A DNA stretch of 33,718 nt from an uncultured virus (IMG/VR IMGVR_UViG_3300025120_000026) (IMGVR_UViG_3300025120_000026); one strand, 5' to 3'. Counted from the first letter of the stretch, positions 1,766 to 26,137 are shown. Numbers and translations are program-made. The notes: generated from the sequence alone by a model not told the origin.

Positions 1766-1766
1766 C

Positions 1767-2555: not shown

Positions 2556-2560
2556 GTTTC

Positions 2561-3433: not shown

Positions 3434-3662
3434 TTGTATCACCATTATAATTTATATTAACGTTAGTCCATTGGCGGACAATATCGTTTAATTCTTCTTT
3501 CGTTACTTTAAGTCTAATCTCTTTACCGGAAGAGAAATGGAATTTCATCCAGTATTCTCCAGTATCAGTGTTTAGTCTCCAAGTAGAAAAGTCCGCATTC
3601 TCCATAGGGAACGCAAAACTATTTCCATGCATCACATTATTTGTTATTGTATATTCATTCAT
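3417..3662 (-). CDS. Hypothetical protein (beta-rich, ~81 aa)
   Basis: GGAG RBS before MNEYT at 3662; co-oriented in the operon. Confidence 0.6.
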   Translation of the reverse strand: MNEYTITNNVMHGNSFAFPMENADFSTWRLNTDTGEYWMKFHFSSGKEIRLKVTKEELNDIVRQWTNVNINYNGDTNELEC

Positions 3663-3678
3663 TTTAATTTCTCCATTA

Positions 3679-3706
3679 TTTGTTGAAGGGCTTTTCACCC
3701 TTCTGA
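3679..3706 (-). promoter_or_regulatory. Intergenic hairpin element, copy 1 (GAAGGGT-GAAAA-GCCCTTC)
   Basis: Inverted repeat at 3685-3703; near-identical 28-mer at 15159-15186. Confidence 0.55.
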
Positions 3707-3742
3707 CCGATACGGGGAGAGTTCGGCTACTCGAAATTCTAC

Positions 3743-4981: not shown

Positions 4982-5032
4982 ATTTATTTCTCCTTTTATT
5001 CATTTCTTGTTTTTGTTTTATTTTACTTTGCT

Positions 5033-5944
5033 TTATATCATTTGTCCTACCATCCAAGATGCTAGAACTTTGGGAGTCATATTACTACTTCTCCATTCTG
5101 CTTCTCCTACAACTCTAAGTAGTTTGAATTTACTTTTAGGTTCTAAGTCACTTTTAACTATAGTATCATGTAAATTAATACATACAGTCTTCATGTCTAT
5201 TGATTGATATAACAACTTATGCACCTTCTCTAAACAATTTGTATATTCATTTGTATTAATTAATTCTAATATTTTAGTATATGGTTCTAGGTTTTTATCT
5301 ATTTGATATATGAGGTTTGATTTACTAGACACGGATGCCTGTAGTTCCGTCAACCCTCTTCTTAAGTCTCCGTGAAGATAGGTTATGAACCTTTCTAATT
5401 CATCCTCAGATACCGTTAAAACGCCTTCCGAGGACAAAACTGAATCCATAACTTGTTTCATATCAGAATTGTTTAGTCTAGTAAACGCATAGTTTGCACA
5501 CCTAGATTGAATAGGAAATATAATTTTATGTCTACTATTACAAGTAATAATAAATCTACAATTAGAACTATATCTTTCCATAATTCTCTTTAATGCATTC
5601 TGTGCATCTTTAGTCATACCATCCATTTCATCTAATAATATTATTTTGAATGGTACTTCTCCAACCTTACTAGTTGAAGCAATTTCTTTTATTCTAGTTC
5701 TAACAGTTTCTAACTTTCTATCATCAGATGAATTAATTTCATGGAAGTTTGCTCCTTTAAATTCACCAAGTAAATCATTTGCTAAAGCGATTGCCGCAGT
5801 AGTTTTACCTACTCCTGCTATACCATATAACAATAGATTAGGCATTTCTTTATTCTGTATCCAATGCTCTGCATCTAATACAAAATTGGATTGCCCATAT
5901 AATTCACTTAACTTACTAGGTCTATATTTTTCTGTCCACAACAT
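5033..5944 (-). CDS. rfcS: Replication factor C small subunit (clamp loader)
   Basis: LWTEKYRP box, Walker A GIAGVGKTT, Walker B LLDEMD, SRC motif, GDLRR; start at 5944 overlaps the upstream stop. Confidence 0.95.
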   Translation of the reverse strand: MLWTEKYRPSKLSELYGQSNFVLDAEHWIQNKEMPNLLLYGIAGVGKTTAAIALANDLLGEFKGANFHEINSSDDRKLETVRTRIKEIASTSKVGEVPFKIILLDEMDGMTKDAQNALKRIMERYSSNCRFIITCNSRHKIIFPIQSRCANYAFTRLNNSDMKQVMDSVLSSEGVLTVSEDELERFITYLHGDLRRGLTELQASVSSKSNLIYQIDKNLEPYTKILELINTNEYTNCLEKVHKLLYQSIDMKTVCINLHDTIVKSDLEPKSKFKLLRVVGEAEWRSSNMTPKVLASWMVGQMI

Positions 5945-6471
5945 TACATTCTCACTCCTTTCATTCCTTTCATTAATGAAAACCATCTAGGTATTTCAGA
6001 CTTCCATTTAGCAAAGTATATTTTATCTTTAACATAGTAGGTTCTATATTTTTCTACAGTACTTAACTCATCAAAGTTTTCTACTTTTCTACATAATGAA
6101 TCTTCAGATATTGCTACTGCAAATTCAGTTAATCCAATATCAGGTAATGTATCTATTACTTGTTCCCATATATTGTGAAACTCTTTTAATGTAGTTTCTA
6201 CTTTGTGTATTCTATCATAGTATCTAATACTATATTCTTTACATAATGCTTCACAATGTGTTTTTAGAAACACAAAGTTTTGTTTAGATTTTCTAGCCCA
6301 AATTGTACAGGGATGATTTAACATCACTGGTTTATATGGACTATCATAACCTAAGTGGTCTGCAATAGTTGACATCATTTGTAAACTTTCAGTTGGCATT
6401 TTTACGACATGTATGTTACACATATCTTGTGCGGCTTTCGTTGGGTCTTCGTTTAATATAAATATATTCAT
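5944..6471 (-). CDS. Pyrimidine-dimer DNA glycosylase/endonuclease V-like phage protein
   Basis: MNIFILNEDP..AA....HVVKM..ES.QM, NHPCTIW and YR.YY..DK motifs typical of this phage family. Confidence 0.7.
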   Translation of the reverse strand: MNIFILNEDPTKAAQDMCNIHVVKMPTESLQMMSTIADHLGYDSPYKPVMLNHPCTIWARKSKQNFVFLKTHCEALCKEYSIRYYDRIHKVETTLKEFHNIWEQVIDTLPDIGLTEFAVAISEDSLCRKVENFDELSTVEKYRTYYVKDKIYFAKWKSEIPRWFSLMKGMKGVRM

Positions 6472-6487
6472 TTTAATTTCTCCATTA

Positions 6488-7348
6488 TTATAACCATGCC
6501 CCTAAGGATGGTTTAGGTTGTACTGGGGCGTATTTTTTCTTTCTTCTTTTATCTCCAATACCAACAATTTTACATTCAGTATTGTCTAATTTAGTTTTTG
6601 CATACTCAATAAATTCATCACCTTGTAGTAAAGATTTAATTAAGTAAGCATCGGACTTTCTCATCTTAAGTTTCCTACATATTTTAGGTACTACCGAATA
6701 GGCACTACGTTTAGGCATTACTAATTTTCTATACATTCTACCATCGTGAACATAAGATAACATCTCATAAAAATAATCATTACTTAACTTTCTTTTAACT
6801 GCAAAGTCAATGTATGCTAATTTATTAGGATGCATGTTTGGTGTTAACCAAGATAGGAACTGAGTATCAGATGGTTTATTATCCTTTAGCATCAAAGCAA
6901 TTTCTTCTCTATCTGCATTCTTAAGATATTCACCTACCATTGGATATATATCAATATCATATTTTTTAGGTTGTGATGCTCTAGGTGCAATCTCTTTTAG
7001 ATATTCTAAGTATACTTTTTTAGTTGCACGTTTTAACTTACACAAACTAAAAAGACTCTTAGGAACATCCTTTTGATTATCGGAAAGTAATACTACTTGA
7101 CCTTTATATTCTAATATAGTCTTACGAATTAATTCTGTATTAGGTTTATAATTTGCTTCTCTAATTATAATACCTACTTCTATAGGTATACTATAGTTAT
7201 CAGTTATATCAAACTCATTAGCATATTTTATAATTGGGTTACTAGAAACAAATGTTAAGGCTTTATCCATTTTTTCTGTTACTGCTTGTCCTACTATTAT
7301 TATTGGTTTATATTCATTATATTCTTTTATTGTATTTATTAGGCTCAT
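6488..7348 (-). CDS. Degenerate RFC large-subunit-like protein
   Basis: KPIIIVGQAVTEK (decayed Walker A), IIIREAN (decayed Walker B), VVLLSDN, basic tail ending in PIP-like PSLGAWL; two genes from rfcS. Confidence 0.5.
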   Translation of the reverse strand: MSLINTIKEYNEYKPIIIVGQAVTEKMDKALTFVSSNPIIKYANEFDITDNYSIPIEVGIIIREANYKPNTELIRKTILEYKGQVVLLSDNQKDVPKSLFSLCKLKRATKKVYLEYLKEIAPRASQPKKYDIDIYPMVGEYLKNADREEIALMLKDNKPSDTQFLSWLTPNMHPNKLAYIDFAVKRKLSNDYFYEMLSYVHDGRMYRKLVMPKRSAYSVVPKICRKLKMRKSDAYLIKSLLQGDEFIEYAKTKLDNTECKIVGIGDKRRKKKYAPVQPKPSLGAWL

Positions 7349-7637
7349 CTATAGTCCTCACTTCTACAAGTTCATCATATTCAGTATTGCATTTTCCACA
7401 ATCAATAGATATGATAAACCATTTTATTTCCTTTTCATATTTTACTCCTGCTTTGAAAGCAAAGAGTTTGTTACCACATTCTCTGCAACCCATTAAGGAT
7501 TGTCTAGTTGCATGGTAATCTAGTATTTCTTCATCAGAAACTAGATGTTTTGATTTATCTAACAAAGATGTATTAACAATACATACTGAACATAAATGAT
7601 GCTCTGCTTCTCGTAGGCTACACCTTGCACACATCAT
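7317..7637 (-). CDS. Double Zn-finger protein
   Basis: Four CxxC pairs (CARC, CSVC, CREC, CGKC). Confidence 0.7.
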   Translation of the reverse strand: MMCARCSLREAEHHLCSVCIVNTSLLDKSKHLVSDEEILDYHATRQSLMGCRECGNKLFAFKAGVKYEKEIKWFIISIDCGKCNTEYDELVEVRTIDEPNKYNKRI

Positions 7638-8035
7638 TGTAACAAATCCTTTATTCTTAGTATATTATCAAGACCATCTTGTGTTAGATGTTGCTCTTGT
7701 CTTACCATCCACATTACTTGTGCAAATGGATTCCAATTAACATTGGATGTATTACTATGTAGAGAAAATGTTTCATACATAGTTTCTAAATTAGAAAGAC
7801 CTGTAATATATAATATTGGTCTAGGTCTTTTATTACTTTCTAAGTTCTTAATTTTACTATTGATTTCATATTGGAGTAGACTTCTATGTATTGCATATAC
7901 ATATCTTTCATTACCTCGTATTGAAACTCTTAATCTTACTCGATATCCTACGTTAGTATTAACGTCTTTAGATATATTAATTTCTGCCGTAGGATGTGAA
8001 AGGAAAATTCCTCTCAGTTCATCTTGAGATAACAT
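7634..8035 (-). CDS. Single-motif LAGLIDADG-fold protein with degenerate motif
   Basis: ELRGIFLSHPTAEINI in place of LAGLIDADG, GYRVRLRVSI strand, C-terminal HLTQDGLDNILRIK typical of the LAGLIDADG_1 family. Confidence 0.7.
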   Translation of the reverse strand: MLSQDELRGIFLSHPTAEINISKDVNTNVGYRVRLRVSIRGNERYVYAIHRSLLQYEINSKIKNLESNKRPRPILYITGLSNLETMYETFSLHSNTSNVNWNPFAQVMWMVRQEQHLTQDGLDNILRIKDLLQ

Positions 8036-8059
8036 GATGTTGACTCCATGAGAAGGTAG

Positions 8060-9619
8060 TTAAATATTGCTCCTTATATCTTCTAATGTATTAATATCAG
8101 CAGGATACTTATCATCTCTAATTCTAACTAATCTAGGAAACCTAAGACCAAAATTACCATCAGCATCTTGAGATATTAAATCACATGTTACTTCTAATAC
8201 TACTCTAGGTAAAACATAGAAAATATCTTTATCATACTTATCTACAATCTTTTTCAAATCTGTTGTTAATCTAGTTAAGTCATCATCAGAAAACCCTGTA
8301 CCAACCGAACCAATATTAACGTAACCGTCAGGACTTTTAACAGAGATACCAAACGTTCCAAATACACTACTTCTCTTTCCTTCTCCATATTTAGCACTGT
8401 CTATAATTACATCTAAATTTATCATAGGAGGTTTGTGTTTTAACAAACACTTATTTCTCTTACCAATAGCATATGGTGCATCTAAATCTTTAATCATTAT
8501 ACCTTCAAAACCACGATTGATTGCTATATTATATGATTGTATTAAATCTGATGAATCTTTATATTTACCTAATACATTAGTAGAAAAGAATTCTGTTATA
8601 TATTTCTTATCTATTATTGACCGTAACTTAGTTAATCTAATATGATAGGGTTCTTCAATTAGAGATTTACCATCAACATATAATATATCAAAGGCTACCA
8701 TCTTAACAGGACAATCTATCATTGCCTGAACTTTATTCTTAGAGTGAACCCTTGTTGCTAACTTCTTATGTTCAGCAGGAGAACTATCTACATTGATAGG
8801 ATATATTTCACAATCTAATATCATATCTTTACATAATGATATATCTTGTAACGTTGCTACATCACGAAACTGTTCAGTAACAATCTTACCTGTTCTATTG
8901 AAAATAATAACATCAGTATTACTAATATGCATTTGATATCTATTACCATCATACTTAGTATCTATGATATAATTATCAGGCACTTTACCTTCATATTTTT
9001 TAGCCAACATTGGTTTAATAAATACTCCTACTCCACTCTTTTCTTTGAGTGTAGTATTATTAACTAAACTAGTATAGATAGCACTAGGTGAATGATAATT
9101 ATCATACTTAACATTATAGTTTGTCCCAAAGTGTGATTTTAATGCCTTGTAAACATTAGAAGATGAGATACCGTTCCTTGGTGTTCTTAACCAATATCTG
9201 ATAAACCATTTCATTTCTAATCCAGTCATCTTATCTAATTCTTCTTTTAGAATTATAAATGCAGTATTATTTTTAGAAGAACAATCTAACTTTAGTAGTG
9301 TACTGAATGTACTTATTGAAATACTATCCTTAACCTCACTAGGTTCTAATACCATTTGATAGATACCTTCTGCTAAATCTCCCCATAGATTTTCACTACC
9401 AATAACTTCATCTTCAAACACTTCTAACATTTCTGCTAACCATATTCTAGCCTTCTTAACACCAATGTTATTAGGTTCTAATTGTTCTGATAATATATCT
9501 AATACTACAGAAGGATTAGAAAATGTTCTAATTGATTGAGATATTATTTCTTGTTTCTTTATACTTCCACTTGCCATTTCTATTGCTTCACACATTCTTG
9601 AGAATTTCATCAACGTCAT
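8060..9619 (-). CDS. lig: ATP-dependent DNA ligase
   Basis: KPMLA, motif I KYDGNR, LDCEI, FDILY, EGIMIK, GSVGTGFS, LRFPR. Confidence 0.96.
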   Translation of the reverse strand: MTLMKFSRMCEAIEMASGSIKKQEIISQSIRTFSNPSVVLDILSEQLEPNNIGVKKARIWLAEMLEVFEDEVIGSENLWGDLAEGIYQMVLEPSEVKDSISISTFSTLLKLDCSSKNNTAFIILKEELDKMTGLEMKWFIRYWLRTPRNGISSSNVYKALKSHFGTNYNVKYDNYHSPSAIYTSLVNNTTLKEKSGVGVFIKPMLAKKYEGKVPDNYIIDTKYDGNRYQMHISNTDVIIFNRTGKIVTEQFRDVATLQDISLCKDMILDCEIYPINVDSSPAEHKKLATRVHSKNKVQAMIDCPVKMVAFDILYVDGKSLIEEPYHIRLTKLRSIIDKKYITEFFSTNVLGKYKDSSDLIQSYNIAINRGFEGIMIKDLDAPYAIGKRNKCLLKHKPPMINLDVIIDSAKYGEGKRSSVFGTFGISVKSPDGYVNIGSVGTGFSDDDLTRLTTDLKKIVDKYDKDIFYVLPRVVLEVTCDLISQDADGNFGLRFPRLVRIRDDKYPADINTLEDIRSNI

Positions 9620-9833
9620 TTTTATTCACCTTATTAATTTCTATTATTTTATTTATTGCTTTACTAAGATGAGTTAACTCATCCATGTTCATTCTTATTC
9701 CCTTACGGGAAGGCTTACCATCAGCATACCATCGTAAATCTACAATAGGTATGTTCCAATATTCTGCCGTTCTAACTACTAACTCACTAGTAGCATTTCT
9801 AGGTATTCTTACTATTATCTTTTCATCTTTCAT
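9588..9833 (-). CDS. PC4/p15-like ssDNA-binding transcriptional coactivator
   Basis: EYWNIPIVDLRWY...KPSRKGIRM signature of the PC4 fold. Confidence 0.8.
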   Translation of the reverse strand: MKDEKIIVRIPRNATSELVVRTAEYWNIPIVDLRWYADGKPSRKGIRMNMDELTHLSKAINKIIEINKVNKNDVDEILKNV

Positions 9834-10225
9834 GATGTCCACCCTTGTCTAAATTCTTGGAGTGAATTAAATGATTTAAAATATCTAGGAGATTCTAACT
9901 TATCTACTCTATTTGCTATCCATACCACTCCACCGAGACTACTTATCTTAACTATTTCATATTCTTTATCTTCTATTAAAATCATATCCTCAGTACGGAT
10001 GTCAGGAGATAAACCATATTGTTTGGTTAACTCCGTTGACATCTCGGATAAGTTTTCAGCAAAATATTTAACTATTAAACTTCTTTGTATTGGTACTTTA
10101 GCATCTACTGTTACACTTATTTTACCATTCATATTGCACACTTTACATTTATTTCCTTCACAAATAGGACAGGGAATTTCAGCAGGTAAAGGGGCAGGAA
10201 ATCTAATTGTTACTGCCTTCTTCAT
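9830..10225 (-). CDS. Zn-finger hypothetical protein
   Basis: CPICEGNKCKVCNMNG (DnaJ-like Cys cluster); coupled to neighbours. Confidence 0.65.
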   Translation of the reverse strand: MKKAVTIRFPAPLPAEIPCPICEGNKCKVCNMNGKISVTVDAKVPIQRSLIVKYFAENLSEMSTELTKQYGLSPDIRTEDMILIEDKEYEIVKISSLGGVVWIANRVDKLESPRYFKSFNSLQEFRQGWTS

Positions 10226-10227
10226 AC

Positions 10228-10656
10228 TTATACAACCTTTTCAGAATAATATACTTCATATGTATAAGAAGCATTTTCAACATAAGCAAAATGCAAATAC
10301 ACTTTACCGATATCTAAAGCATAACCATAGTTAAATATAAAATCATTTCCTTCTTGAAACACATATCCATTGATTTCTAACCACTCATTATTAGAGTTGG
10401 TTATATTATAGTCAATGCTAATAATCCGTAGAAATGTCGTATTGTTTCCAATAGTAACTACAGGAATAGTTTTGTTATCAAAGGTATCAAAAGACCCACT
10501 AACACTATCATACTCTGAAGGTGGGTCGGGTATTATATCTGTACATCCTGCTAGAGATGAACATAAGAATAATAATACTATTCCAAATTCAGTTAATCTA
10601 GTTTGTCTAGTTTTACTATTTGTAAATTCATCTAAGGTTGTTTGTCTATCAGACAT
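10228..10656 (-). CDS. Putative lipoprotein with tandem PIP-box-like motifs in its N-region
   Basis: QTTLDEF and QTRLTEF, hydrophobic stretch IVLLFLCSS, lipobox LAGC. Confidence 0.6.
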   Translation of the reverse strand: MSDRQTTLDEFTNSKTRQTRLTEFGIVLLFLCSSLAGCTDIIPDPPSEYDSVSGSFDTFDNKTIPVVTIGNNTTFLRIISIDYNITNSNNEWLEINGYVFQEGNDFIFNYGYALDIGKVYLHFAYVENASYTYEVYYSEKVV

Positions 10657-11165
10657 TATTCTTCCTCTCCTACATGTTGTTTCATCATACCATAGTATAC
10701 TTTCTTAGCAATATCAGTTTCTAAGTTATGTGCTAAGTATTGATTATCTCCTAATACAATTGCAGACTTCATTAAGTTCATCCAAGTACCATCTTCATTA
10801 GCACTTCTCCACTTGTTGATAGTTCCCCAATCTGTACCGCTCCAATATGCTTGACCAAACGGATGTGTATGTATCCAACATTTAATTGGTAACTTCATTC
10901 CTTTAAGTTGACTTGTTTGATTCTCAAAAGAAACAAAACTTGGTGTTCCAACACTAATAAATAATTCATCTTTATCATCTACTATTACTTGTATTTCTCT
11001 AGGTATATCAAACGCTTCAATAGATTGATTCCATATTGTAGTTAAGAAAACTTCTGTTGTGTTACTAGGATAGTTAAACTCTACTACATCCTTAACAACA
11101 TCCCAAATCTTTCTTATTTCTTCTTGCCATTCTTCATTCTTTATTTCTAATTCTTCCATATTCAT
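10656..11165 (-). CDS. JAB/MPN+ metalloprotease (deubiquitinase-like)
   Basis: Upstream Glu (PREIQV) and complete HxH-x7-S-x2-D motif: WIHTHPFGQAYWSGTD. Confidence 0.88.
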   Translation of the reverse strand: MNMEELEIKNEEWQEEIRKIWDVVKDVVEFNYPSNTTEVFLTTIWNQSIEAFDIPREIQVIVDDKDELFISVGTPSFVSFENQTSQLKGMKLPIKCWIHTHPFGQAYWSGTDWGTINKWRSANEDGTWMNLMKSAIVLGDNQYLAHNLETDIAKKVYYGMMKQHVGEEE

Positions 11166-11166
11166 A

Positions 11167-11421
11167 TTATATATCTCCTATTTGTTTTCTAAATGTTGTT
11201 TTTCTTCTTCTTGTGCTAGTTATTAGTAGCGTCTTTGTTAATTCTTCTATTGTTGTATGTGTGTTTGGGTTTAACGCAAAATGAAACCTAACTCCCATAA
11301 CAACATCGTCATTACAGTCGTCACAACACCTACCCGACTTCACAGGTTCAGCATTGTGCCCCTCGCTCCATCCACTAAGTTCATGAACTTTTATGTCATC
11401 TTTACATATTATACATTTCAT
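11167..11421 (-). CDS. Zn-finger protein
   Basis: CIIC...GHNAEPV..GRCCDDCN, a common small phage Zn-binding pattern. Confidence 0.7.
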   Translation of the reverse strand: MKCIICKDDIKVHELSGWSEGHNAEPVKSGRCCDDCNDDVVMGVRFHFALNPNTHTTIEELTKTLLITSTRRRKTTFRKQIGDI

Positions 11422-11422
11422 A

Positions 11423-11662
11423 TTATATTCCTCCCATTTTACTAATGATAAGGTCTTGACTATTTACAAACTCATGGTAAACTGCATGACCTGAAATAAA
11501 TCCACCTGCATGTCTTTTAGTTCCTAAAAACTCTTCACCACAAGAAGGACAAGTTACCTTTACTATTTGTGCTTGGACATAATATCCATCAGTGGATAAC
11601 ACGTTCATTACTTTATCTACTTCATCTTCTGTTAAATCATCTATATTTTCTTCATTACTCAT
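11423..11662 (-). CDS. C2H2-type Zn-finger protein with acidic N-terminus
   Basis: CPSCGEEF...HAVYH. Confidence 0.65.
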   Translation of the reverse strand: MSNEENIDDLTEDEVDKVMNVLSTDGYYVQAQIVKVTCPSCGEEFLGTKRHAGGFISGHAVYHEFVNSQDLIISKMGGI

Positions 11663-12222
11663 ATGTTCATCACCATCTTATCTATTACATTGTTATTATC
11701 GTTCCACCATCTTTGAATCCATTGAGTTGCCGCACCTGCAATTACCATGTGCATACAATTGATTCCTTCCGGTTTACCATCCCATTCTGAGCCTTGGCAA
11801 CTAAAAGAACCGTCCGGCCCTGCTAGTAAAGTATCCATCAAATTTGGGTCTATTTTGTAAGAAATTAATGCCGCATTTCTTCCTTGAGAACGTAAGTCTA
11901 ACCACTTAAGTTTAGCATCATCACCAAAACCTTGAGAGTAAACTAATCTTCTTGCAGTTAAATTGTCAGCACAACAAATTACTAAGTCATAACCTTGTAA
12001 TTGTTTCTCTACTAATACTTGATATGGGTTAGATTTTGCATTAGCAAAGACATCAACTTTGTTCATACCAAGATGACATTCACTAAAGTTTTGATATGTT
12101 AGATTCTTTTTCTCTACCTTATCATCATCAAATATAGTTACATCATATATTCCTATTCTATCTAAAAAGGATGCTAGATAACTACCTATTCCTCCTGCTC
12201 CTATTATCATTATTTTTCTCAT
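11659..12222 (-). CDS. ThiF/MoeB-family E1-like adenylyltransferase
   Basis: IGAGGIGS, DDDKVEKKNLTYQ, GMNKV, DLVICCADNLTAR; no CxxC Zn pairs; candidate catalytic Cys in GSFSCQ. Confidence 0.92.
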   Translation of the reverse strand: MRKIMIIGAGGIGSYLASFLDRIGIYDVTIFDDDKVEKKNLTYQNFSECHLGMNKVDVFANAKSNPYQVLVEKQLQGYDLVICCADNLTARRLVYSQGFGDDAKLKWLDLRSQGRNAALISYKIDPNLMDTLLAGPDGSFSCQGSEWDGKPEGINCMHMVIAGAATQWIQRWWNDNNNVIDKMVMNI

Positions 12223-12303
12223 TTATTCTTCCTCCTTATCATGTATTGGACATTTAACATTTGCATATAATGTTGAATCCACTAAACACGGACACCATTT
12301 CAT
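12223..12303 (-). CDS. 26-aa Cys/His micro-protein
   Basis: Not in ORF track. MKWCPCLVDSTLYANVKCPIHDKEEE; start overlaps the upstream stop and its stop abuts the E1 ATG. Confidence 0.55.
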   Translation of the reverse strand: MKWCPCLVDSTLYANVKCPIHDKEEE

Positions 12304-12512
12304 TATTTCTCACTCCATTTATTTTTAAATATCAGATAATCTGCTTCTGATACTTCGGAACTAAATATAGTTCCACTGTTCATATGTAAATCAATTAAAT
12401 ATCTAATTGATGCCAACCTAGAACCTTTTACTTTATTCACAGTATATGCACTAACATATCTGAGATTTATTGTTGTCATTCCTCTACTTGTTTTCATTGT
12501 TATTTCATTCAT
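12303..12512 (-). CDS. Hypothetical protein
   Basis: 69 aa ORF with GGAG RBS, in operon. Confidence 0.65.
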   Translation of the reverse strand: MNEITMKTSRGMTTINLRYVSAYTVNKVKGSRLASIRYLIDLHMNSGTIFSSEVSEADYLIFKNKWSEK

Positions 12513-12523
12513 ATTTATTTCTC

Positions 12524-13396
12524 CTATATTCTAATACCATGTATTATTTCATTAACTGAATAGGTATTAAGTTCAGCCTTTGTTATTCCTAATATAATAT
12601 ACAATTGTTTTAGTGCTACTCTAATAGCACCATCAGAACAATTCCATACTTCTACTAAGTTCTTTTGTGTAATATTCATTTCATTAATTTGAGATACCAT
12701 CCAAACTGTTGATGCTAAGAAGTTATCTGAATATCTTATATCTCTTTCACTTAATAAGATATCAATGTATGATACCATATTTATAATATCCATTCTATCA
12801 TCACCTATTACTCCTAGTTTATCTAAAAGTTGTTGTGCAATAATAGTTATATTCCTTTCAGAAAAGATGTGTGCTTTTTTATGAAACTTTGCTATCTTTT
12901 TAGCAACTTTAGATATTCTAGAAGAAGGCACATCCGTTACAGATTGATGTCTCCTAAGAGAAGTAGGTATACTAATCTCCTTTAGTATAAAGTATGTTAA
13001 TCCTGCTGACCTTTCTTCTAGATTATGTCCTTTAAGAACATGTTCGTTTTTTATTGCTCTATAATAAGTATGTACTCTAGTTAACACATCTCTGTTAATA
13101 CTATATTGAGATAATGTTGTAGCAGATAATACTACCATACGTCTATCTGAGACATTTACATTTACATTATGTCTCATATTATTTGATTTTAAATTACCGG
13201 ATGTTGTTATAATTGAACCTAATTGTTTCATATGACTAGACTTACCAATCACACTAGTTCTATATACACTATCTTTAAACTGTACTGTATCTTCAATAAA
13301 GTGAGTGATTTCTACTAAGCCACATTTGTCGCATACTGTCTCTCCTAACCGCTCATCAAAAGATGAGGTTAAACATCCACATTCTTTACAACTCAT
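12524..13396 (-). CDS. tfb: Transcription factor B (TFIIB)-like protein
   Basis: N-terminal Zn ribbon CKECG...DERLGETVCDKCGLV, then two cyclin-like helical repeats (LKGHNLEERSAGLTY; ITQKNLVEVWNCSDGAIR). Confidence 0.85.
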   Translation of the reverse strand: MSCKECGCLTSSFDERLGETVCDKCGLVEITHFIEDTVQFKDSVYRTSVIGKSSHMKQLGSIITTSGNLKSNNMRHNVNVNVSDRRMVVLSATTLSQYSINRDVLTRVHTYYRAIKNEHVLKGHNLEERSAGLTYFILKEISIPTSLRRHQSVTDVPSSRISKVAKKIAKFHKKAHIFSERNITIIAQQLLDKLGVIGDDRMDIINMVSYIDILLSERDIRYSDNFLASTVWMVSQINEMNITQKNLVEVWNCSDGAIRVALKQLYIILGITKAELNTYSVNEIIHGIRI

Positions 13397-14769
13397 AGTG
13401 AGTCCTCTTTTCTTAAAGAACTAATATGTAGTAGTTGACTTTTTAATGACTCAAATTCTTCATCAGATAACCTTTCTTTACCTTCTTTATCATTCTGTCT
13501 AACTATAGTATGGATTAAGTTATTATCTGTTACTATTTTATCATTCATAGCAATATATGCTCTAGTACTAAGTTGGTCACCAACACTAGAGTTATTTTGA
13601 ACATTGTCAATACAAACATTATTTGTACGTAAGTTAATCATCTTATCATTATGATTGAAGGTTAATATACCAAAATCTTTTACTGTATCTTTAGTAAATT
13701 CTTCTCTAAATAAACAATGACTATCTACTAATTGGAAACCTATATGTTTAGTTGCATTATGTTTAGCAATAATTAACCAATCCATTAATTGACCTCTAAC
13801 TAATACTGCCTTTCTAAAATTAGTTTCTGAAGTATTGTTAACTGTTGAAGGTGATATAACCATATTTGTTAAATTAACTCTATGTATGCAGTTTGGAATA
13901 TAGGTTAAGTTAGGAATATTGTTTAATGATTCTAATAGTTCTTCCGCTCTTTTATTTACCATATCTTTTGTTCTATTTTGTCTTAACCAAGCAATCATAA
14001 GACTATGTTGAGCCTCAGAAGGATGAGTTCCTAACAAGGTGAACCATAAATTTCTAGGAGATATATTAAACCATTTTTTAGACCTTTCTGAACCATGTTT
14101 AAATGTATTTACAAAGGTATTCATATCTTTAACAGACATAATACCCCAAACACCATCAGATATTTCTAAGGCTATTTCTTTCTCACTTATTAATTTAGTA
14201 TTAATCCTAACTTCTTGTTTAACACCCACATGGTAGAATTTATATGGTGTTCTATTTTCTAAAGCATATAGAACATTAGATGGGTAAGTTAACATTTTTT
14301 CTACATAATTTTCTAGAACAGAAAGACTATCACAAATAGTTGCTCTCATTACAAACTTAGCAAGAGTTGCTATCATATCTTCCTTAGATAATTTATTATA
14401 ATTAACATGAAAACTTCCTGAAGAATTTCTACCATAGTATAATGTGTAGTCTCCTTCAGAATGAAATCTTCTAGATAACATATTAGTATAAGGCCTAGTA
14501 TCTTCTCTACTAGGAATAAGGATGCGTTTAATTCTTTCTTGTAGCATAGTTAGTACAGGGTCAAGTTTAGACTGTTTACCTGTTACCATTGCTATTCTAC
14601 CAGTTTCAATTTCGTATTCTCCATATTGGTTTAACTTTCTAGTTCTATTTCTTCTACCATAATATACATTATGTAAACTATCTTTAGTAGTTGAAGTAAA
14701 TAAGAAACTTACGGTTTGAGTGTCGTCTTGATTATCATTTGCTGAGCGTATTATAAATTTTACTTTCAT
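13393..14769 (-). CDS. Hypothetical protein with possible E2-like Cys motif near the C-terminus
   Basis: Long ORF with GGTGAA RBS before MKVKF; INLRTNNVCID resembles the UBC active-site loop. Function is speculative. Confidence 0.6.
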   Translation of the reverse strand: MKVKFIIRSANDNQDDTQTVSFLFTSTTKDSLHNVYYGRRNRTRKLNQYGEYEIETGRIAMVTGKQSKLDPVLTMLQERIKRILIPSREDTRPYTNMLSRRFHSEGDYTLYYGRNSSGSFHVNYNKLSKEDMIATLAKFVMRATICDSLSVLENYVEKMLTYPSNVLYALENRTPYKFYHVGVKQEVRINTKLISEKEIALEISDGVWGIMSVKDMNTFVNTFKHGSERSKKWFNISPRNLWFTLLGTHPSEAQHSLMIAWLRQNRTKDMVNKRAEELLESLNNIPNLTYIPNCIHRVNLTNMVISPSTVNNTSETNFRKAVLVRGQLMDWLIIAKHNATKHIGFQLVDSHCLFREEFTKDTVKDFGILTFNHNDKMINLRTNNVCIDNVQNNSSVGDQLSTRAYIAMNDKIVTDNNLIHTIVRQNDKEGKERLSDEEFESLKSQLLHISSLRKEDSL

Positions 14770-15142
14770 TGTATTCACCATATTCATTTTCATTTGATGT
14801 ATAATATTTTTTATAGTGATATATATCATCCACTATACTGTATACTTGTTCTCTATGTATTGAAGTTTGACTAGAACTATGCATACTTTGTTTAATAACT
14901 TGAGCGAATCTTTCTGCATTAGTAGAATGTTCTAAATATCCATTTGTAGCCTGTAATACATTCCTACAAGAACCACTAATGTAATATACTATAGATTTTT
15001 TAAAATCTCTAGCAGTATATCTATGTGATTTATAATTAGTATATGCTAATTTAACATTATCATATTCACCTGTTGCACCAAATAATTCTACAAATTTTAG
15101 AAGTTCATCTTCTATAAACAACATCTGTTTTACTTTACTCAT
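14735..15142 (-). CDS. Hypothetical protein
   Basis: 135 aa ORF in operon orientation. Confidence 0.6.
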   Translation of the reverse strand: MSKVKQMLFIEDELLKFVELFGATGEYDNVKLAYTNYKSHRYTARDFKKSIVYYISGSCRNVLQATNGYLEHSTNAERFAQVIKQSMHSSSQTSIHREQVYSIVDDIYHYKKYYTSNENEYGEYNESKIYNTLSK

Positions 15143-15158
15143 ATTATTATCTCTATAT

Positions 15159-15186
15159 TTTGTTTATGGGCTTCTCACCCACCTGA
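15159..15186 (-). promoter_or_regulatory. Intergenic hairpin element, copy 2 (TGGGT-GAGAA-GCCCA)
   Basis: Matches 3679-3706 with a compensatory change of the flanking pair. Confidence 0.55.
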
Positions 15187-15235
15187 TAACTTAAACCTGT
15201 TACTAGGTGTCCTAATATTGTTATATTAGTCAGAC

Positions 15236-15436
15236 TTAATATCCACCGACAACGGCAGGTACTAAGTTTACGGATTCTACAGATTCCCAGTTTACATCAG
15301 AGATAGATTCTCTTGAAACCATTGTTCCATCTACAAAGACCCAATGGGTCGGATGGTCAACAATGTGTTCAATCATTTCATCTGCATTTACTGTTAATTG
15401 TGTATGTCCTGTTTCATTCATTATTATTAGATTCAT
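15236..15436 (-). CDS. Ubiquitin-like beta-grasp protein (ThiS/MoaD/SAMP-like) with GG-Y C-terminus
   Basis: 66 aa; WVFVDG strand and terminal VNLVPAVVGG+Y match the ThiS/MoaD ending pattern; E1 and JAB genes nearby. Confidence 0.82.
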   Translation of the reverse strand: MNLIIMNETGHTQLTVNADEMIEHIVDHPTHWVFVDGTMVSRESISDVNWESVESVNLVPAVVGGY

Positions 15437-15440
15437 TTAT

Positions 15441-15719
15441 TCATTCACCTCCCTTTTGTGTAAGTTGTGCGCTTAGTTGGTTTAACTGAAGTTGTACTCC
15501 ATCTAAGTTCCTTTGACATTCAATCAATCTACCAGTCAATGTATTCATAGTAAGTTCATACTGTTGACATAACTGCTTATGTTGATTTAGTTGATTAACT
15601 GTTAAGTTATACATTTCAACTAATTTTTGAACATCTATTTGTTGCTGATTTGCATCAGTAACTATAGGTTCTACATCTTCTTGTGGGGCTTCAGTTTTTT
15701 CTTTTTTGTTTTTACTCAT
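15441..15719 (-). CDS. Gln-rich coiled-coil protein
   Basis: Heptad L/Q pattern; GGAGTGA RBS before MSKNK. Confidence 0.7.
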   Translation of the reverse strand: MSKNKKEKTEAPQEDVEPIVTDANQQQIDVQKLVEMYNLTVNQLNQHKQLCQQYELTMNTLTGRLIECQRNLDGVQLQLNQLSAQLTQKGGE

Positions 15720-16848
15720 TTGTATCACTCCTTTTTCTATCCATGTGAATTTCATCTATGGCTTTGGATGCTGATGTTTTTGTTAAAGTTGCGTAGTCTC
15801 CTTGGTATCCTAAATTTCTGAGGTAGGCTATTTGTTTCTGACTAGCCGCTTCATTGTCTCGTTGTAAGATGTTCATAAGGGTTTCCAATTGTTTCTCCGT
15901 CGGGTCACGATAGTTAATTAATCTTGACTTCATATCCGTCAAAAATGACCTTTCCCAACCATTACCCGCATCTTCTGCGGTGAAATATTGTATACCGTAG
16001 TACTCACATCTTTCAGCAAGTTGCTTTTCTGAAGCAGATAACTGATTCATACGAATAATGTCATCTTTTGTGCTAAGTGATAGATTATCTAAGTAATCTT
16101 TACGATTATTAATCTTAGTATCTTCTTCTTTAAGAGAAGAGATATGTTCTGTAATCATAGCACTAAATAAATGCATATCATTCATTAGTTTATCATCAGG
16201 ATAACCTCTTCTATCTATTTGACTTCTTTGATTATCGGGATGATTCCATCTCCAAACAATACTAGACATAACATAATCAGGTGTTCCATATCTTCCACTA
16301 CCAGTCTTACGAATTTTAGTTACAGGTCTATACATCTTAAGAGATTCATCAAAGTATGTTTTACCAGTATGTCTGACGTTAATTCTTAAATCTAAGTCCT
16401 TTATCTCATTAAATAATGTTTCAAACTCTTCTCCATTTTCTTCCCACCAAGCATCACTGATTAAACGTTTAACTGTGGCAGATTTCCATTCTTCAATCAT
16501 ATCTTCTGTAATAGTAGACTCATCTATCTTTAGAGTTTCAGTCATATGTCTTAGAATCATCCAATTACCAATACAGGTTGAACCAACTATTTCTTTAACT
16601 TCAGTTAATGTATTTTCTATTTCAAAATGGTATGCAATCGGATGACCACATAAACACTTAGAAGGATGTCCACTTGGGTGATTCCTTACTTGAGTTGGAA
16701 TACCATTTGAGTTATCGTATAACTGAGTGTTTGTTGCTCTCCAAACATTACCTGTTATTCTCCATTCTAATTTAGCCTCTTCATAATCATCAGATTGAGA
16801 TAGTGCTAATAGTTTAGATGTTAGTCTTGGGTAATTTGATTGACTCAT
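15712..16848 (-). CDS. Hypothetical protein with Zn-binding motif
   Basis: CLCGHPI...GSTCI; two C-terminal (T/S)xKQ..(Y/T)L..(I/L) helical motifs. Confidence 0.75.
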   Translation of the reverse strand: MSQSNYPRLTSKLLALSQSDDYEEAKLEWRITGNVWRATNTQLYDNSNGIPTQVRNHPSGHPSKCLCGHPIAYHFEIENTLTEVKEIVGSTCIGNWMILRHMTETLKIDESTITEDMIEEWKSATVKRLISDAWWEENGEEFETLFNEIKDLDLRINVRHTGKTYFDESLKMYRPVTKIRKTGSGRYGTPDYVMSSIVWRWNHPDNQRSQIDRRGYPDDKLMNDMHLFSAMITEHISSLKEEDTKINNRKDYLDNLSLSTKDDIIRMNQLSASEKQLAERCEYYGIQYFTAEDAGNGWERSFLTDMKSRLINYRDPTEKQLETLMNILQRDNEAASQKQIAYLRNLGYQGDYATLTKTSASKAIDEIHMDRKRSDTNE

Positions 16849-17090
16849 TCAAGTTCCTCCTGTTCATAGGCTCGCATATCTAATAAATGACCAGTTAGTA
16901 AATCATTTATCTTATCAAATAATGCTTCAGCACATCCACCTATAACTTTTCGGTGGAGAGATAACCATATCTTATGTGCATTATTTAACACAACTTTAGG
17001 TTCATCATTTTCATTCATCGTTATTACTATTGGTGGCATTTCTAAATCATTCACCAATCTAAATTCTACATTCGTTTCTTTATTTATCAT
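16845..17090 (-). CDS. Hypothetical protein
   Basis: 81 aa ORF overlapping both neighbours. Confidence 0.65.
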   Translation of the reverse strand: MINKETNVEFRLVNDLEMPPIVITMNENDEPKVVLNNAHKIWLSLHRKVIGGCAEALFDKINDLLTGHLLDMRAYEQEELE

Positions 17091-17715
17091 TTTTATTTCC
17101 TTCTTTATTCTTCTTTTCTCTTTTCTGCATATGTGTCATTTTAGCAGTTAATGAAGTATTCCATACTTTACTTTGTTTTTTCATTTTACTCAATTCTTTT
17201 TCTAATCTTATTACTTGAGTATTAAGTGATGCTACTTTAGCATTTAATTTACCCATAAGAGAATTGTCTACATCTTTATCTAATATTCTTTCTACTGCCT
17301 TATCTATAGCAGATGTTATCTTCTTTCGTTTTGCTACAGTATAATCACTTAGTTTATCTACATCATCCCAAACTTTGAAGTCTTGTTTTAACTTCGATAG
17401 AGATTCTTCTACCTTAGTAACTCTAGCCGCAACTCCTGAGGTGTATGTATGTTCTCTAGCAAAGTTAATATTTTCTAATCCCATTTGTTTCCTTACCCAT
17501 TCTCTCATTGCCATTTCATCAGCAACTAATTTATTTGTATTTCTTGTTTTAACATTTAAAATTGGGTTAGGAACGTGAGGACTAACAGGTAAGTGGTCAT
17601 CGCAATACTTACGATTCGCTCTAATAGAATACACACTAAACGGTTTACCACACCTACCATCTTCTACAGGTTGTAGGCAATACCTAATATTTCTAGTTGA
17701 TTTTCCACCGGACAT
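17080..17715 (-). CDS. Zn-finger plus coiled-coil protein
   Basis: C...RCGKPF...YCDDH followed by long heptad repeats. Confidence 0.7.
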   Translation of the reverse strand: MSGGKSTRNIRYCLQPVEDGRCGKPFSVYSIRANRKYCDDHLPVSPHVPNPILNVKTRNTNKLVADEMAMREWVRKQMGLENINFAREHTYTSGVAARVTKVEESLSKLKQDFKVWDDVDKLSDYTVAKRKKITSAIDKAVERILDKDVDNSLMGKLNAKVASLNTQVIRLEKELSKMKKQSKVWNTSLTAKMTHMQKREKKNKEGNKNDK

Positions 17716-17987
17716 TATATTACCTCATAAAAATACGGTAATACGATAGGTATCCAATCATGTAGTAAATATCCCATTATTAATAATCCTATTATCCATA
17801 GTGTATCATCAACCATCCAATCAATCATCCAATCTTCACCATTAATTTCATATTCTAACCTAGCCTTTTCTTTACGGGCGTTAAATAATGTAGATATAGC
17901 AGATATTGGTAATGATATTGGTAATGTAATTACATTATAGATTCTAATCAATGTATTAACTTTTGATATTTCTTTTTCATAACTCAT
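17715..17987 (-). CDS. Small membrane protein
   Basis: Two hydrophobic segments (VITLPISLPISAISTLF; LWIIGLLIMGYLL). Confidence 0.65.
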   Translation of the reverse strand: MSYEKEISKVNTLIRIYNVITLPISLPISAISTLFNARKEKARLEYEINGEDWMIDWMVDDTLWIIGLLIMGYLLHDWIPIVLPYFYEVI

Positions 17988-18169
17988 ATTCTATCCCTCA
18001 TTTCTGCTATCTCATTTAAGATTCCATTCATTGTCATACCGATAACCGATATGGCATCATCTAAGATAACCTTCCTCATACTAGATAGAGGAGGAAGGGT
18101 TTCATAGACATCTACAAAATCATTATAGTGTTTCTGTAGTAGTTCTAATTTCTTTAGAAGTTCTTCCAT
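17984..18169 (-). CDS. Hypothetical helical protein
   Basis: 61 aa with GGAGG RBS, coupled to neighbours. Confidence 0.6.
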   Translation of the reverse strand: MEELLKKLELLQKHYNDFVDVYETLPPLSSMRKVILDDAISVIGMTMNGILNEIAEMRDRI

Positions 18170-18339
18170 TATTCTTCCTCCTCAAATGTAGAGCCTACAA
18201 TATTTCCTAAAAATATATCTAATTCACATAGACATTGACATTTTTCAATATCATGTGAACCATCAGATAATTGAACCCATACATATCCTTTATTATCACA
18301 CTCTACACAATTTCTTTTATATTCACTCCAATTTTTCAT
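18169..18339 (-). CDS. Small Zn-finger protein
   Basis: Not in ORF track. MKNWSEYKRNCVECDNKGYVWVQLSDGSHDIEKCQCLC...EEEE fills the gap exactly. Confidence 0.65.
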   Translation of the reverse strand: MKNWSEYKRNCVECDNKGYVWVQLSDGSHDIEKCQCLCELDIFLGNIVGSTFEEEE

Positions 18340-19818
18340 TTAAGCACCTACTCTTTCGCCAACATAGTTTAATGTCTTTTTTGCTCTAGTTATTGCAACA
18401 TAGCAAAGGTTACGTTCTTGGGCTTTAGCCGATACTGATTTAGCCATAGGATGAGGCATAACTTCAGGCTTTAGAATCCAAACATTATCTGCTTCTAATC
18501 CTTTAGCCTTATGTATAGTAGAGAAGATAACTCCTCTCTTCTTACCGTCACCGAATATCTTCTTGATGTTATCTAACAATCCTTGAACAGTACTAGTGTT
18601 ACCAGTTAGATGTAAGATACATTGTGCTTTATCTTGCATTGATACAACTGCGTTTTCTTTGTCAGCCCTTCTGAATGCTTCACAAGCAACTTCAACATGT
18701 GCGTTTAATTGTGGAATGAATTGTTCAATTCTCATTGAGCCATTCTCTGTTACTTTCTTAATAAGTAATTGTAGTGAATAACCAATGTCTCTACCTAATA
18801 CAAAGGCAGGTATACCTTGAGCGATTAGATTAAAACATTCTCCAACTAAAGGAGCATTAACTCTACATAATACTAAGTCACCAACACTAGGGTTGAAAGA
18901 AACATTAGTGTTAACTTCACCTTCAGGAGCATCTTCTCTACAAGTATATCCTTTAAAGAATCTGTTTGCTTCTGCAACTACAGTCTTAGGACATCTCCAA
19001 GTAATAGATAACTCAAACACCTTAACTTTTCTAGGTGAATCAGATAGAGTCTTGTGAAACATATCCATACTTGCTGAATCTGCCCCACGGAAACCATAAA
19101 TTGCTTGCTTTGGGTCACCAACTACAATCATTCTTCCACCGTTACAAGATTTAAGAATTAACTTTCTTTGAACTTCATTGAAGTCTTGTGCTTCGTCTAC
19201 GAATAACGTATCGTAGTGTCTAACAGGTAAATCCATAACTACAGGTAGCCAAATCATATCATCGAAGTCAACAGTAGATAAATCCATACAGTTATTGATA
19301 ATTGTAGGGAAGTAATCTAACGCAGTACTTCTATCTTCAAGACCATCAAACTCAATGTCATATTCATCAATTAAAGATAGTAAAGATTCTTTATCACTAG
19401 CATCTACTAGAGATGATTTAGATAGAGATACTAACTTAACTAGTGCAGGGGCAGATTTGTATTTACCTAATACACTGTTAATGATTTTGTATACTTTCTT
19501 GTTATCTACTTTAGATACTCTTGATTGCTTTTTGATTGCAGAAAAGCCTAGACTATGAAAAGTCATTGCTTCACAATCAGATGGCAGTTTAGTTCCTAGT
19601 TCAGTAGCAATGGCTTTGTTAAAGGCTAGAAAACCTTTACTTCCATTAACTGATTTAGCACTTTGAACTATGGTAAAAGTCTTACCTGTTCCTGCACCTG
19701 CATATACCATTACATGACTTTCGCCGTGGGCTATTTCGTTCCATATTTCATCTTGTTCTTCAGTTCCTTGTATATTATATAACGCATTTAATCTGTATAA
19801 TTTTTTATTCATCTTCAT
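18340..19818 (-). CDS. UvrD/Rep-like superfamily 1 helicase
   Basis: AGAGTGKT, DEAQD, VGDPKQAIYGFRGAD, TWRCP, STIHKAKGLEAD, YVAITRAK. Confidence 0.95.
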   Translation of the reverse strand: MKMNKKLYRLNALYNIQGTEEQDEIWNEIAHGESHVMVYAGAGTGKTFTIVQSAKSVNGSKGFLAFNKAIATELGTKLPSDCEAMTFHSLGFSAIKKQSRVSKVDNKKVYKIINSVLGKYKSAPALVKLVSLSKSSLVDASDKESLLSLIDEYDIEFDGLEDRSTALDYFPTIINNCMDLSTVDFDDMIWLPVVMDLPVRHYDTLFVDEAQDFNEVQRKLILKSCNGGRMIVVGDPKQAIYGFRGADSASMDMFHKTLSDSPRKVKVFELSITWRCPKTVVAEANRFFKGYTCREDAPEGEVNTNVSFNPSVGDLVLCRVNAPLVGECFNLIAQGIPAFVLGRDIGYSLQLLIKKVTENGSMRIEQFIPQLNAHVEVACEAFRRADKENAVVSMQDKAQCILHLTGNTSTVQGLLDNIKKIFGDGKKRGVIFSTIHKAKGLEADNVWILKPEVMPHPMAKSVSAKAQERNLCYVAITRAKKTLNYVGERVGA

Positions 19819-24333: not shown

Positions 24334-24358
24334 GTTATTCAAGTTTGGTTCTATTAGC

Positions 24359-26136: not shown

Positions 26137-26137
26137 T

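Follow-up and report, generated by a model that had tools for sequence, protein, structure and literature searches.

A conserved ubiquitin-like protein, E1-like enzyme and JAMM protease gene set in a putative magrovirus, with a chromosomal counterpart in Poseidoniales

Introduction

Can a virus of marine archaea carry its own protein-tagging pathway, or do genes of this kind serve sulfur chemistry or a conflict with the host? The question is raised by a 33,718-nucleotide stretch of DNA from an uncultured virus (IMGVR_UViG_3300025120_000026; the whole stretch is hereafter the window), where a first-pass annotation made from the sequence alone proposed a ubiquitin-like (Ubl) conjugation system at positions 10656–15436. 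The proposal comprised a Ubl precursor with a masked C-terminal di-glycine, a minimal ThiF-family E1 and a JAB/JAMM protease. Every one of these open reading frames (ORFs) is present on the minus strand (Table 1), and the Ubl/E1/JAB module is real and conserved, being common to the virus group and to the host lineage. Four findings had been named beforehand as counting against the proposal, namely a different fold of the small protein, loss of its GG, failure of the genes to co-occur in relatives and a sulfur-transfer client elsewhere in the genome; each was examined and none was found. As set out below, we consider protein conjugation the probable function of the module.

Ubl tagging in archaea is known mainly from the SAMPs and from a few eukaryote-like operons, and prokaryotic viruses are essentially uncharted in this respect.

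A masked Ubl encoded with an E1-like enzyme and a JAMM protease

The 66-amino-acid (aa) precursor was modelled as a β-grasp fold with a predicted local distance difference test (pLDDT) score of 89, as the first-pass annotation had anticipated, and its structural neighbours are Ubls. The best Foldseek matches of the model are ubiquitin itself, with MoaD, ThiS, TtuB and CysO also among the neighbours. Searches of Pfam and NCBIfam gave no match that would place the protein in a curated family (ubiquitin, ThiS/MoaD or Urm1). Its own family has 1012 database matches at E ≤ 1e-3; among the matches listed (120 of the 1012), no relative carries a Pfam domain, and JGI labels name one of them ThiS and another TusB. 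The di-glycine is invariant in 19 of 19 syntenic orthologues, in which it is followed by Y, C, L, SL, IR, SC, GNQ, LQ, IN, SV or CY. The masking described for the window sequence proved general, as all 56 distinct viral Ubls from the loci fetched end in GG plus one (30 sequences), two (24) or three (2) variable residues and none ends at GG.

The E1-like enzyme belongs to the ThiF superfamily, scoring 65.7 bits against the Pfam ThiF profile (PF00899; gathering cut-off 28.1), of which its relatives cover positions 21–214 of 238. It falls under all NCBIfam equivalog cut-offs (ThiF 52.8 versus 159; PRTRC ThiF 46.4 versus 144.75; UbaA 38 versus 450). Direct reading of the 187-aa sequence finds the GSFSCQ motif, five cysteines and no CxxC pair, in agreement with the earlier description of a ThiF-family enzyme that lacks zinc sites. 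G.GG.G and S.SCQ are kept in all 70 distinct viral E1s (183–224 aa), and D32, D34, K55, D86-N87 and R111/R115 are invariant in an alignment of 20 sequences. The glycine-rich loop presumably binds the nucleotide, and we take the Asp of the D-N motif (D86-N87) to be catalytic. Cys142 (S-x-S-C142-Q) is invariant in virus and host; a second Cys just before the last helix, present in the window, is not conserved among relatives. The E1 profile matched ThiF-type 9egc (1.6e-10) and Cap2 (1.9e-10) in the PDB, with a range to 3.5e-9, and further matches were Uba1, MccB, UBA5, Uba4 and MoeB, with PaaA also among them; these alignments span the N-terminal half only.

Co-folding of the E1 with Ubl residues 1–65 gave a score of 0.36 (runs 0.31, 0.36 and 0.48), the best control reaching 0.01; the partner pLDDT was 84 or more, and the runs agreed in no fewer than 96% of contacts. 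In the calibration of this approach 116 of 157 solved complexes and 2 of 215 mismatches reach the mark, and the range up to 0.60 holds 18 of the 157 solved complexes plus both passing mismatches. The model thus lends weak support to a pairing of the two proteins, and since E1–Ubl complexes have already been solved, the pass may reflect mere likeness to these.

The description of the third gene as an intact JAB protease also stands. The motif HxHx7Sx2D is kept in 72 of 72 distinct viral JABs, with Glu57, H99, H101, S109 and D112 as the invariant residues. The single sequence scores 13.1 bits (0.088) against Pfam Prok-JAB, under the cut-off of 25, and a profile matches AMSH-LP (2e-5), STAMBP (1e-4), Sst2 (2e-4) and a Caldiarchaeum Rpn11-like protein (2.3e-4) in the PDB, with matches extending to 5e-4. 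The protease is presumed to mature the Ubl and to deconjugate it. The constancy of the GG tail, the conservation of the JAMM and S.SCQ motifs and the recovery of JAB and Ubl around E1 (see below) go beyond chance.

As a separate observation on the proteins of the module, 63 of the 72 distinct viral JABs have an acidic EE or EEE tail at the C-terminus. On the host side, 10 of 11 E1s and 9 of 11 JABs finish with E-V-x-x, in most cases E-V-x-A. Both types of tail could be docking motifs.

A candidate E2-like carrier

Between the Ubl gene and the E1 gene lies o478, which encodes a conserved protein of 478 aa. A single cysteine, C406, is invariant among 21 sequences, and the motif C[IVLM]D...GDQ occurs in 68 of 70 distinct o478 sequences. 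In the structural model (pLDDT 80.1), C406 follows the strand formed by residues 396–405 and precedes a long helix (416–428). The catalytic Cys of E2 enzymes likewise sits after a β-sheet and before a long helix. An HPN motif upstream of the Cys is a further E2 feature, and no HPN-type invariant columns occur upstream of C406 in the o478 alignment. Foldseek returned no match for the whole model (best E 0.03, TM score < 0.2), the Atlas gave no usable match and Pfam none.

A search of five host genomes with the o478 profile gave a single weak match (E 0.0075), which led to a host family of 250–320 aa with one invariant Cys followed by LP.GDQ..L.L.L.ND. By hhalign, o478 residues 279–439 align with this family at 92% probability (E 5.8e-7). 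The host family, for which no Pfam or PDB sequence match was found, occurs in 56 of 151 Poseidoniales genomes, and of these 56 genomes JAB is present in 54 and Ubl in 51. When the host profile was run against viral contigs, 20 pattern matches were obtained and none was confirmed. Because it combines a C-terminal domain that is weakly UBC-like in the model, an invariant Cys and a host counterpart, o478 is a candidate E2.

Conserved gene order in a magrovirus-type genome

Nearly every gene within window positions 125–19818 lies on the minus strand, and the G+C content of the window is ~32%. This block encodes a family-B DNA polymerase fragment, an RFC-like clamp loader, a pyrimidine-dimer glycosylase, an ATP-dependent DNA ligase, a PC4-like protein and a UvrD-type helicase. 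Positions 1–24332 share 99.9% identity with one end of G001, a viral record of 86 kb (CheckV 92% complete), and the last 122 bases of the window match the opposite end; the window therefore spans the gap of G001, giving a combined genome of ~95 kb. Genes for an SU10-like capsid protein, a prohead protease, a portal, a tail tube and a terminase are found in the remainder of G001. Magroviruses of Marine Group II (Poseidoniales) archaea are described in the accessible text of PMC5434244, and since gene content and size match these viruses, we assign the window to a magrovirus-type virus. It is likely, in our estimate, that the window is part of a head-tailed virus of this type infecting marine Poseidoniales, in which the tagging genes lie inside the replication/transcription block as a working Ubl modifier module.

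That the genes co-occur in relatives, a further expectation of the first-pass annotation, was borne out from two directions. Around 24 viral loci anchored on E1 (50–82% identity), tblastn recovered JAB in 23, o478 in 22, the TFB-like gene in 21, and Zn79 and Ubl in 19 each; the order was constant, and the loci in which JAB or Ubl is absent end prematurely on the side concerned. Anchoring on o478 gave 79 loci, again with constant order, of which 75 have E1, 75 JAB and 65 Ubl. Overall, gene order is kept across ~100 magrovirus-type contigs. As these viruses are related, the loci document retention over 28–82% protein divergence and not independent assembly.

The first-pass annotation had also seen no thiamine, molybdopterin, cysteine-synthase or tRNA-thiolation partner, and this holds for the ~95-kb genome as far as Pfam can detect. 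No MoaE, ThiG, TtuA/NcsA, CysM/cysteine synthase or rhodanese was found among the window ORFs scanned, nor in 48 further G001 ORFs of at least 60 aa (45 + 3).

Table 1. Coordinates of the genes in the viral locus and of the related genes discussed in the text
Feature	Location	Strand	Remarks
Ubl precursor, 66 aa	15236..15436	-	ends VPAVVGGY (VVGG-Y); conserved NETGHT and DHPTHW motifs
o478, conserved 478-aa protein	13393..14829	-	C-terminal domain (residues ~279–461, nt ~13447–13995) candidate carrier; invariant Cys406
E1-like adenylating enzyme, minimal one-domain, 187 aa	11659..12222	-	Pfam ThiF 4.6e-18
JAMM/MPN+ metalloprotease, 169 aa	10656..11165	-	HTHPFGQAYWSGTD fits HxHx7Sx2D; acidic EEE tail
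TFB/TFIIB-like transcription factor gene	12524..13396	-	start overlaps o478 stop by 4 nt; neighbour, module membership unproven
Zn79, virus-only 79-aa zinc-ligand protein	11423..11662	-	ends MGG-I; start overlaps E1 stop by 4 nt
Small Cys-rich ORF, 84 aa	11167..11421	-	CxxC...CCxxC; poorly conserved
Host fusion gene (G135)	L136 6159-7292		followed by 79–99 aa helical ORF
Host fusion gene (G077)	L139 4789-6063		followed by 79–99 aa helical ORF
Host fusion gene (G120)	L138 5643-6932		followed by 79–99 aa helical ORF
crAss001 Gp77 (metalloprotease)–Gp76 (ThiF; 'thiamine biosynthesis protein')	L243 3250-5654		
Second crAss-like pair	L244 3598-5654		

A chromosomal counterpart in Poseidoniales

Species-representative genomes were scanned with the E1 profile, and 80 loci were kept. 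Thirteen of these derive from Poseidoniales-type archaeal metagenome-assembled genomes (MAGs), at 33–39% identity and on contigs of up to 778 kb. A trio-type JAB adjoins E1 in 12 of the 13, the thirteenth locus ending at E1, and in none of 64 other loci. In the archaeon UBA602 (L056), Ubl, E1 and JAB are consecutive. The host E1s (211–217 aa) share the invariant S-C-Q cysteine as well as W.DLR and QW motifs, and the host JABs share the JAMM motif.

The viral Ubl profile detected tandem Ubl repeats in four of five host genomes (E 1e-12 to 1e-8). Across 151 Poseidoniales genomes Ubl was found in 83 and JAB in 88, with both in 79, JAB only in 9 and Ubl only in 4. In 18 genomes hand-picked from coordinates the two lie 0.9–2.1 kb apart, and the JAB frame measures 398–437 aa in ten. 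Sixteen host Ubl frames contain one repeat (5), two (10) or three (1), and the repeats end in VGG (24 of 28) or QAG (4 of 28), followed by a linker or by 1–4 residues; tandem copies of this kind would need cutting.

Three host architectures were distinguished. Some genomes have a dispersed poly-Ubl gene with an E1–JAB–small-ORF operon elsewhere, others a Ubl-Ubl-E1 fusion followed by JAB (L136, 377 aa; L139), and in a third arrangement Ubl stands beside a 429-aa E1-JAB fusion (L138). Fusions of Ubl to E1 and of E1 to JAB are classical evidence that proteins work together. The conserved helical ORF that follows each fusion gene has no viral homologue at E up to 1 and belongs to no family, and blastp found no homologue of o478, o131, Zn79 or o81 in the host loci. 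Each of five host genomes also encodes one canonical ThiF (E 1e-75 to 1e-82, frames of 390–422 aa) and one canonical ThiS/MoaD; as these are present separately, the minimal host system represents an additional pathway.

A tree of 44 E1 rows recovers a viral clade (95/98) and a host clade (99/98) as sisters (82/64) on stems of ~1 change per site, the root being placed by midpoint only and several outgroup branches being long. We read this divergence as an old split and not as recent capture, as far as a sequence tree can tell. The viral copy is probably an old, diverged sister of the chromosomal Ubl/E1/JAB system of the host lineage. This host counterpart may be previously undescribed, and virus and host may each run a private tagging pathway.

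Two of the 80 loci (L036 and L037; 52–54% identity) are virus-like contigs in bacterial MAGs labelled Altibacter and Maricaulis. They carry the viral-type trio together with o478, o131 and Zn79, and are probably mis-binned viral contigs. In two further host loci (L116 1087-1695 and L119 1498-1923), the neighbours of a di-Ubl gene are an RpoP-like zinc ribbon (Pfam 3e-6) and an RFC-like AAA+ gene, and the di-Ubl repeats terminate in QAG, unlike the VGG of other host repeats.

Proposed pathway and competing explanations

In the pathway that we propose, the JAMM protease would remove the residue or residues past the Gly-Gly of the 66-aa precursor, and the one-domain E1 would adenylate the glycine thus freed. 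The activated Ubl would then move to a cysteine, either Cys142 of E1 or Cys406 of o478, and would reach lysines of host or viral proteins, from which the JAMM enzyme could remove it again. Routing to the proteasome or counter-defence may be its purpose.

Several observations weigh against this assignment. The Arg of N-L-x-R-Q, which we take to be a phosphate-binding residue, is replaced in the viral E1s (Tyr in 65 of 70, Asn in 3, Thr in 1, unreadable in 1), and the position is His in 11 of 11 host E1s. The 187-aa E1 sequence contains neither a separate Cys domain nor zinc-type CxxC pairs, two of which are a feature of MoeB, ThiF and UBA5. Carriers with GG plus a tail that are matured by JAMM enzymes also occur in sulfur pathways. 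Common descent rather than selection may account for the gene order in magroviruses, and the co-occurrence of Ubl and JAB in host genomes (Fisher p 4e-27) is confounded by shared ancestry and MAG incompleteness. Thirty host genomes with JAB and Ubl show no E2-like gene with a single-protein query. Finally, all chemical steps, the E2 role and the targets are matters that we infer.

Seen in this light, the Ubl could instead be a ThiS/MoaD-like sulfur carrier, trimmed by the JAMM enzyme and adenylated by the E1, whose thiocarboxylate would feed a sulfur insertion by host enzymes that modifies a cofactor, tRNA or DNA. The E1 is of ThiF/MoeB size, with ThiF and MoeB as its best NCBIfam rows, but it has no rhodanese domain; MoaD, ThiS, TtuB and CysO are structural neighbours of the Ubl, two of whose family members bear the JGI names ThiS and TusB, but its best Foldseek matches are ubiquitin itself. 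CysO/Mec+ and QbsE/QbsD provide precedents, being JAMM-trimmed carriers with residues after GG in sulfur pathways, whereas tandem di- and tri-Ubl genes characterise conjugated modifiers and are not known as a hallmark of sulfur carriers. The assignment of o478 as an E2 is weak, yet virus and host both conserve a partner domain that bears a Cys. No acceptor enzyme or rhodanese was detected in the ~95-kb virus genome, for which the host may supply such partners, and all five host genomes checked already possess a canonical ThiF (~400-aa frame) with ThiS/MoaD. On balance a sulfur carrier appears distinctly unlikely. Nor do we regard it as likely that the viral genes merely interfere with the host pathway, for example with the JAMM enzyme stripping host Ubl from viral proteins, or with Ubl and E1 soaking up or redirecting its components, which would amount to counter-defence if the host system is antiviral. 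The host lineage does have homologues of all components, the E1 clades are sisters (82/64) with long stems, and crAss-like phages carry a JAMM and E1 pair only, with no detectable Ubl; bacterial Bil systems of similar build are antiviral, according to the accessible text of PMC10557695. A lone stripping enzyme, however, needs no complete co-diverging set of Ubl, E1, JAB and o478 with conserved catalytic motifs, such as the virus retains. The surface motifs differ as well (DHPTHW in the viral Ubl, x-G-x-W in the host), which suggests separate specificity. In the Poseidoniaceae loci read, the chromosomal surroundings of the host genes are conserved, and PADLOC matched only the E1 fold, with no match to Ubl or JAB; together these leave a defence role unsupported.

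Least probable, and in our view very unlikely, is that Zn79 is the true or an additional substrate of E1 and JAB, as a GG-tailed modifier of different fold or an adenylated peptide-like product. Its tail of GG and one single further residue in 39 of 39 distinct sequences, its place between E1 and JAB in 45 of 45 loci and the overlap of its start with the E1 stop in the window are suggestive, and E1-like enzymes for non-Ubl peptides exist, MccB and PaaA being among the E1 profile matches; but of the 75 loci with E1 and JAB, blastp found Zn79 in only 45, the GG-x at a C-terminus could have a structural role, and the host loci have no homologue of Zn79, whereas there the β-grasp Ubl is fused to E1. 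Chance co-location of the genes was rejected on account of their conservation and of the host fusions. A role of JAB and Ubl in phage tail assembly was likewise rejected, given their position in the replication block, well away from the structural genes of G001.

Protein conjugation thus remains the function that we favour, and a wider reading, which we put forward tentatively and would not yet rate as probable, joins virus and host. Poseidoniales and magroviruses would share an undescribed, lineage-specific pathway in which a poly-Ubl that can be cleaved, an E1 of the smallest known type and a JAMM enzyme act with a new family of Cys carriers of UBC-like fold; the virus copy would be orthogonal and long diverged, with Zn79 as a second modifier, and would tag host or viral proteins of replication and transcription during infection. 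If true, a complete Ubl conjugation cascade encoded by a virus would be on record for the first time outside the viruses of eukaryotes. The Ubl/E1/JAB set is compact and divergent, comes with a candidate carrier and occurs in one of the most abundant lineages of ocean archaea and in its viruses. It offers a testable case of a virus that brings its own modifier rather than hijacking that of its host, the natural pair of diverged, related systems is useful for studies of specificity and conflict, the minimal E1 lets one ask what an E1 needs, and viral genes labelled 'ThiF / thiamine biosynthesis' may belong to tagging modules.

Relation to known systems and to the literature

The closest working analogue, by comparison of components, is Type II BilABCD (BilA Ubl, BilB E2, BilC JAB, BilD E1), for which the accessible text of PMC10557695 describes a masked glycine, a tandem β-grasp and pre-processing by the JAB. 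Both systems have a Ubl glycine followed by non-conserved residues, a JAB for pre-processing (putatively so here), an E1 and a Cys-bearing E2 or E2 candidate. They differ in that BilD, as described there, combines an inactive and an active adenylation domain with a Cys insertion, whereas the E1 studied here has one domain and 183–224 aa. Furthermore, o478 and the host family have no E2 sequence similarity, and the setting is archaeal and within a replication module.

With the SAMP/UbaA/HvJAMM1 system the module shares a β-grasp GG modifier, a ThiF-type single-domain E1, a JAMM protease and its occurrence in archaea. Unlike that system, its E1 scores 38 bits against a UbaA cut-off of 450, the host retains separate ThiF and ThiS, the GG is masked and the host genes are tandem. 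SAMPylation is not known to need an E2; in the present system a candidate carrier exists. The Ub/E1/E2/RING/Rpn11-like operon of Caldiarchaeum subterraneum is likewise an archaeal cluster, in which the precursor Ub is processed by a JAMM enzyme, and of the PDB matches to the viral JAB profile, its Rpn11-like protein (6fjv; 2.3e-4) covers the longest stretch. Its eukaryote-type E1, E2 and RING are recognisable by sequence, whereas none is recognisable in the virus locus.

In crAss-like Bacteroides phages, a JAMM gene (HSHNNMATFFSGTD) adjoins an E1-like gene in the replication module of a ~100-kb tailed virus. The proteins of this pair are larger (~416 and 385 aa by ORF calls), and only the N-terminal half of the E1 aligns (32–36% identity). 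No Ubl or o478 relative was found by profile search in the 10-kb crAss-like loci.

The first-pass annotation knew of no characterised example in an archaeal virus, a statement that stands in part. A viral MoeB/ThiF gene had been mentioned before, since the accessible text of the RaFAH paper (PMC8276007) lists it among the most prevalent auxiliary genes of archaeal viruses and adds a remark on ubiquitination; the remaining kit was not found in print. Three ThiF/E1-like genes are reported in Asgard 'Nidhogg' viruses, with JAB unmentioned in the accessible text (bioRxiv 10.1101/2021.07.29.454249). Both reports, to the extent accessible, concern E1 only and describe no viral Ubl, carrier or host-lineage counterpart. 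ThiF, JAB, ubiquitin and MoeB are absent from the main text of the magrovirus papers PMC5434244, PMC10160649 and PMC11706807 (supplements excluded), and literature searches returned nothing tying magroviruses to ubiquitin, Magrovirales to ThiF, Poseidoniales to ubiquitin-like proteins or crAss-like ThiF to ubiquitin, and no paper on 9egc. UCH deubiquitinase and RING genes in one Marine Group II single-cell genome, as far as the accessible literature describes them, form a different system. Within these sources only the viral ThiF gene is mentioned. The host Ubl/E1/JAB families and their fusions, the candidate E2 and the second GG-tailed protein appear to be new.

Neighbouring genes and further observations

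The small zinc-finger ORFs and TFB noted as interleaved with the module correspond to two Cys/His-rich ORFs and a TFB-like gene. Zn79, the first of these ORFs, has 39 distinct relatives (45–78% identical), all of which end in GG plus exactly one residue, keep CxxC...GH...H and share the conserved segment GTKRHAGGF. In all 45 loci that have the three genes, Zn79 is placed between E1 and JAB, and its nearest Atlas clusters are 100% viral and unnamed. Zn79 could serve as a second modifier, or as a further substrate of the enzymes of the module. The 84-aa ORF gave blastp matches in 14 loci (8 distinct sequences), with conserved C..C, W..G.NA.P and GrCC..C, and no family match in Pfam or PHROG.

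The TFB-like gene matches the Pfam TFIIB zinc ribbon (6.7e-5) and the NCBIfam TFIIB core (3.2e-6, residues 96–271), both under the curated cut-offs, as well as PHROG 20431 (9.4e-6), and it stands upstream of E1 in 21 of 24 loci. In the host locus with the E1-JAB fusion (G120), the gene that follows the fusion and its small ORF (L138 7379-7978, plus strand) has a TFIIB zinc ribbon at its start (Pfam 2.6e-10), a parallel, observed at this single host locus, to the TFB-like gene just upstream of the viral E1.

Two minor matches concern proteasome-lid families. A 61-aa ORF at 17984-18169 (minus strand) matches the Pfam RPN1/RPN2 N-terminal domain (4.2e-5; 23.6 versus a cut-off of 22.4 bits), and the N-terminus of o478 weakly matches PSD13_N (0.036); both are probably helical-repeat noise.

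No RNA run is among the sequencing runs listed as containing words of the locus. Besides the possible source run, five seawater metagenome runs from five studies contain at least half of the words sampled from 10656–15436. Window positions 24333–33596 (~9.3 kb), which hold mainly small plus-strand ORFs of unknown function, have no counterpart in G001. A second protein with an ATP-dependent ligase domain (873 aa, 1.3e-27) is encoded in the structural block of G001, beside the prohead protease (69812–72433; L034 12812-15433). The family-B DNA polymerase appears to be split, in that the window ORF at 125–1765 (minus strand) matches the exonuclease part as well as profile positions 36–194, and a 310-aa ORF of G001 (24674–25606), just past the start of the window, matches profile positions 222–349.

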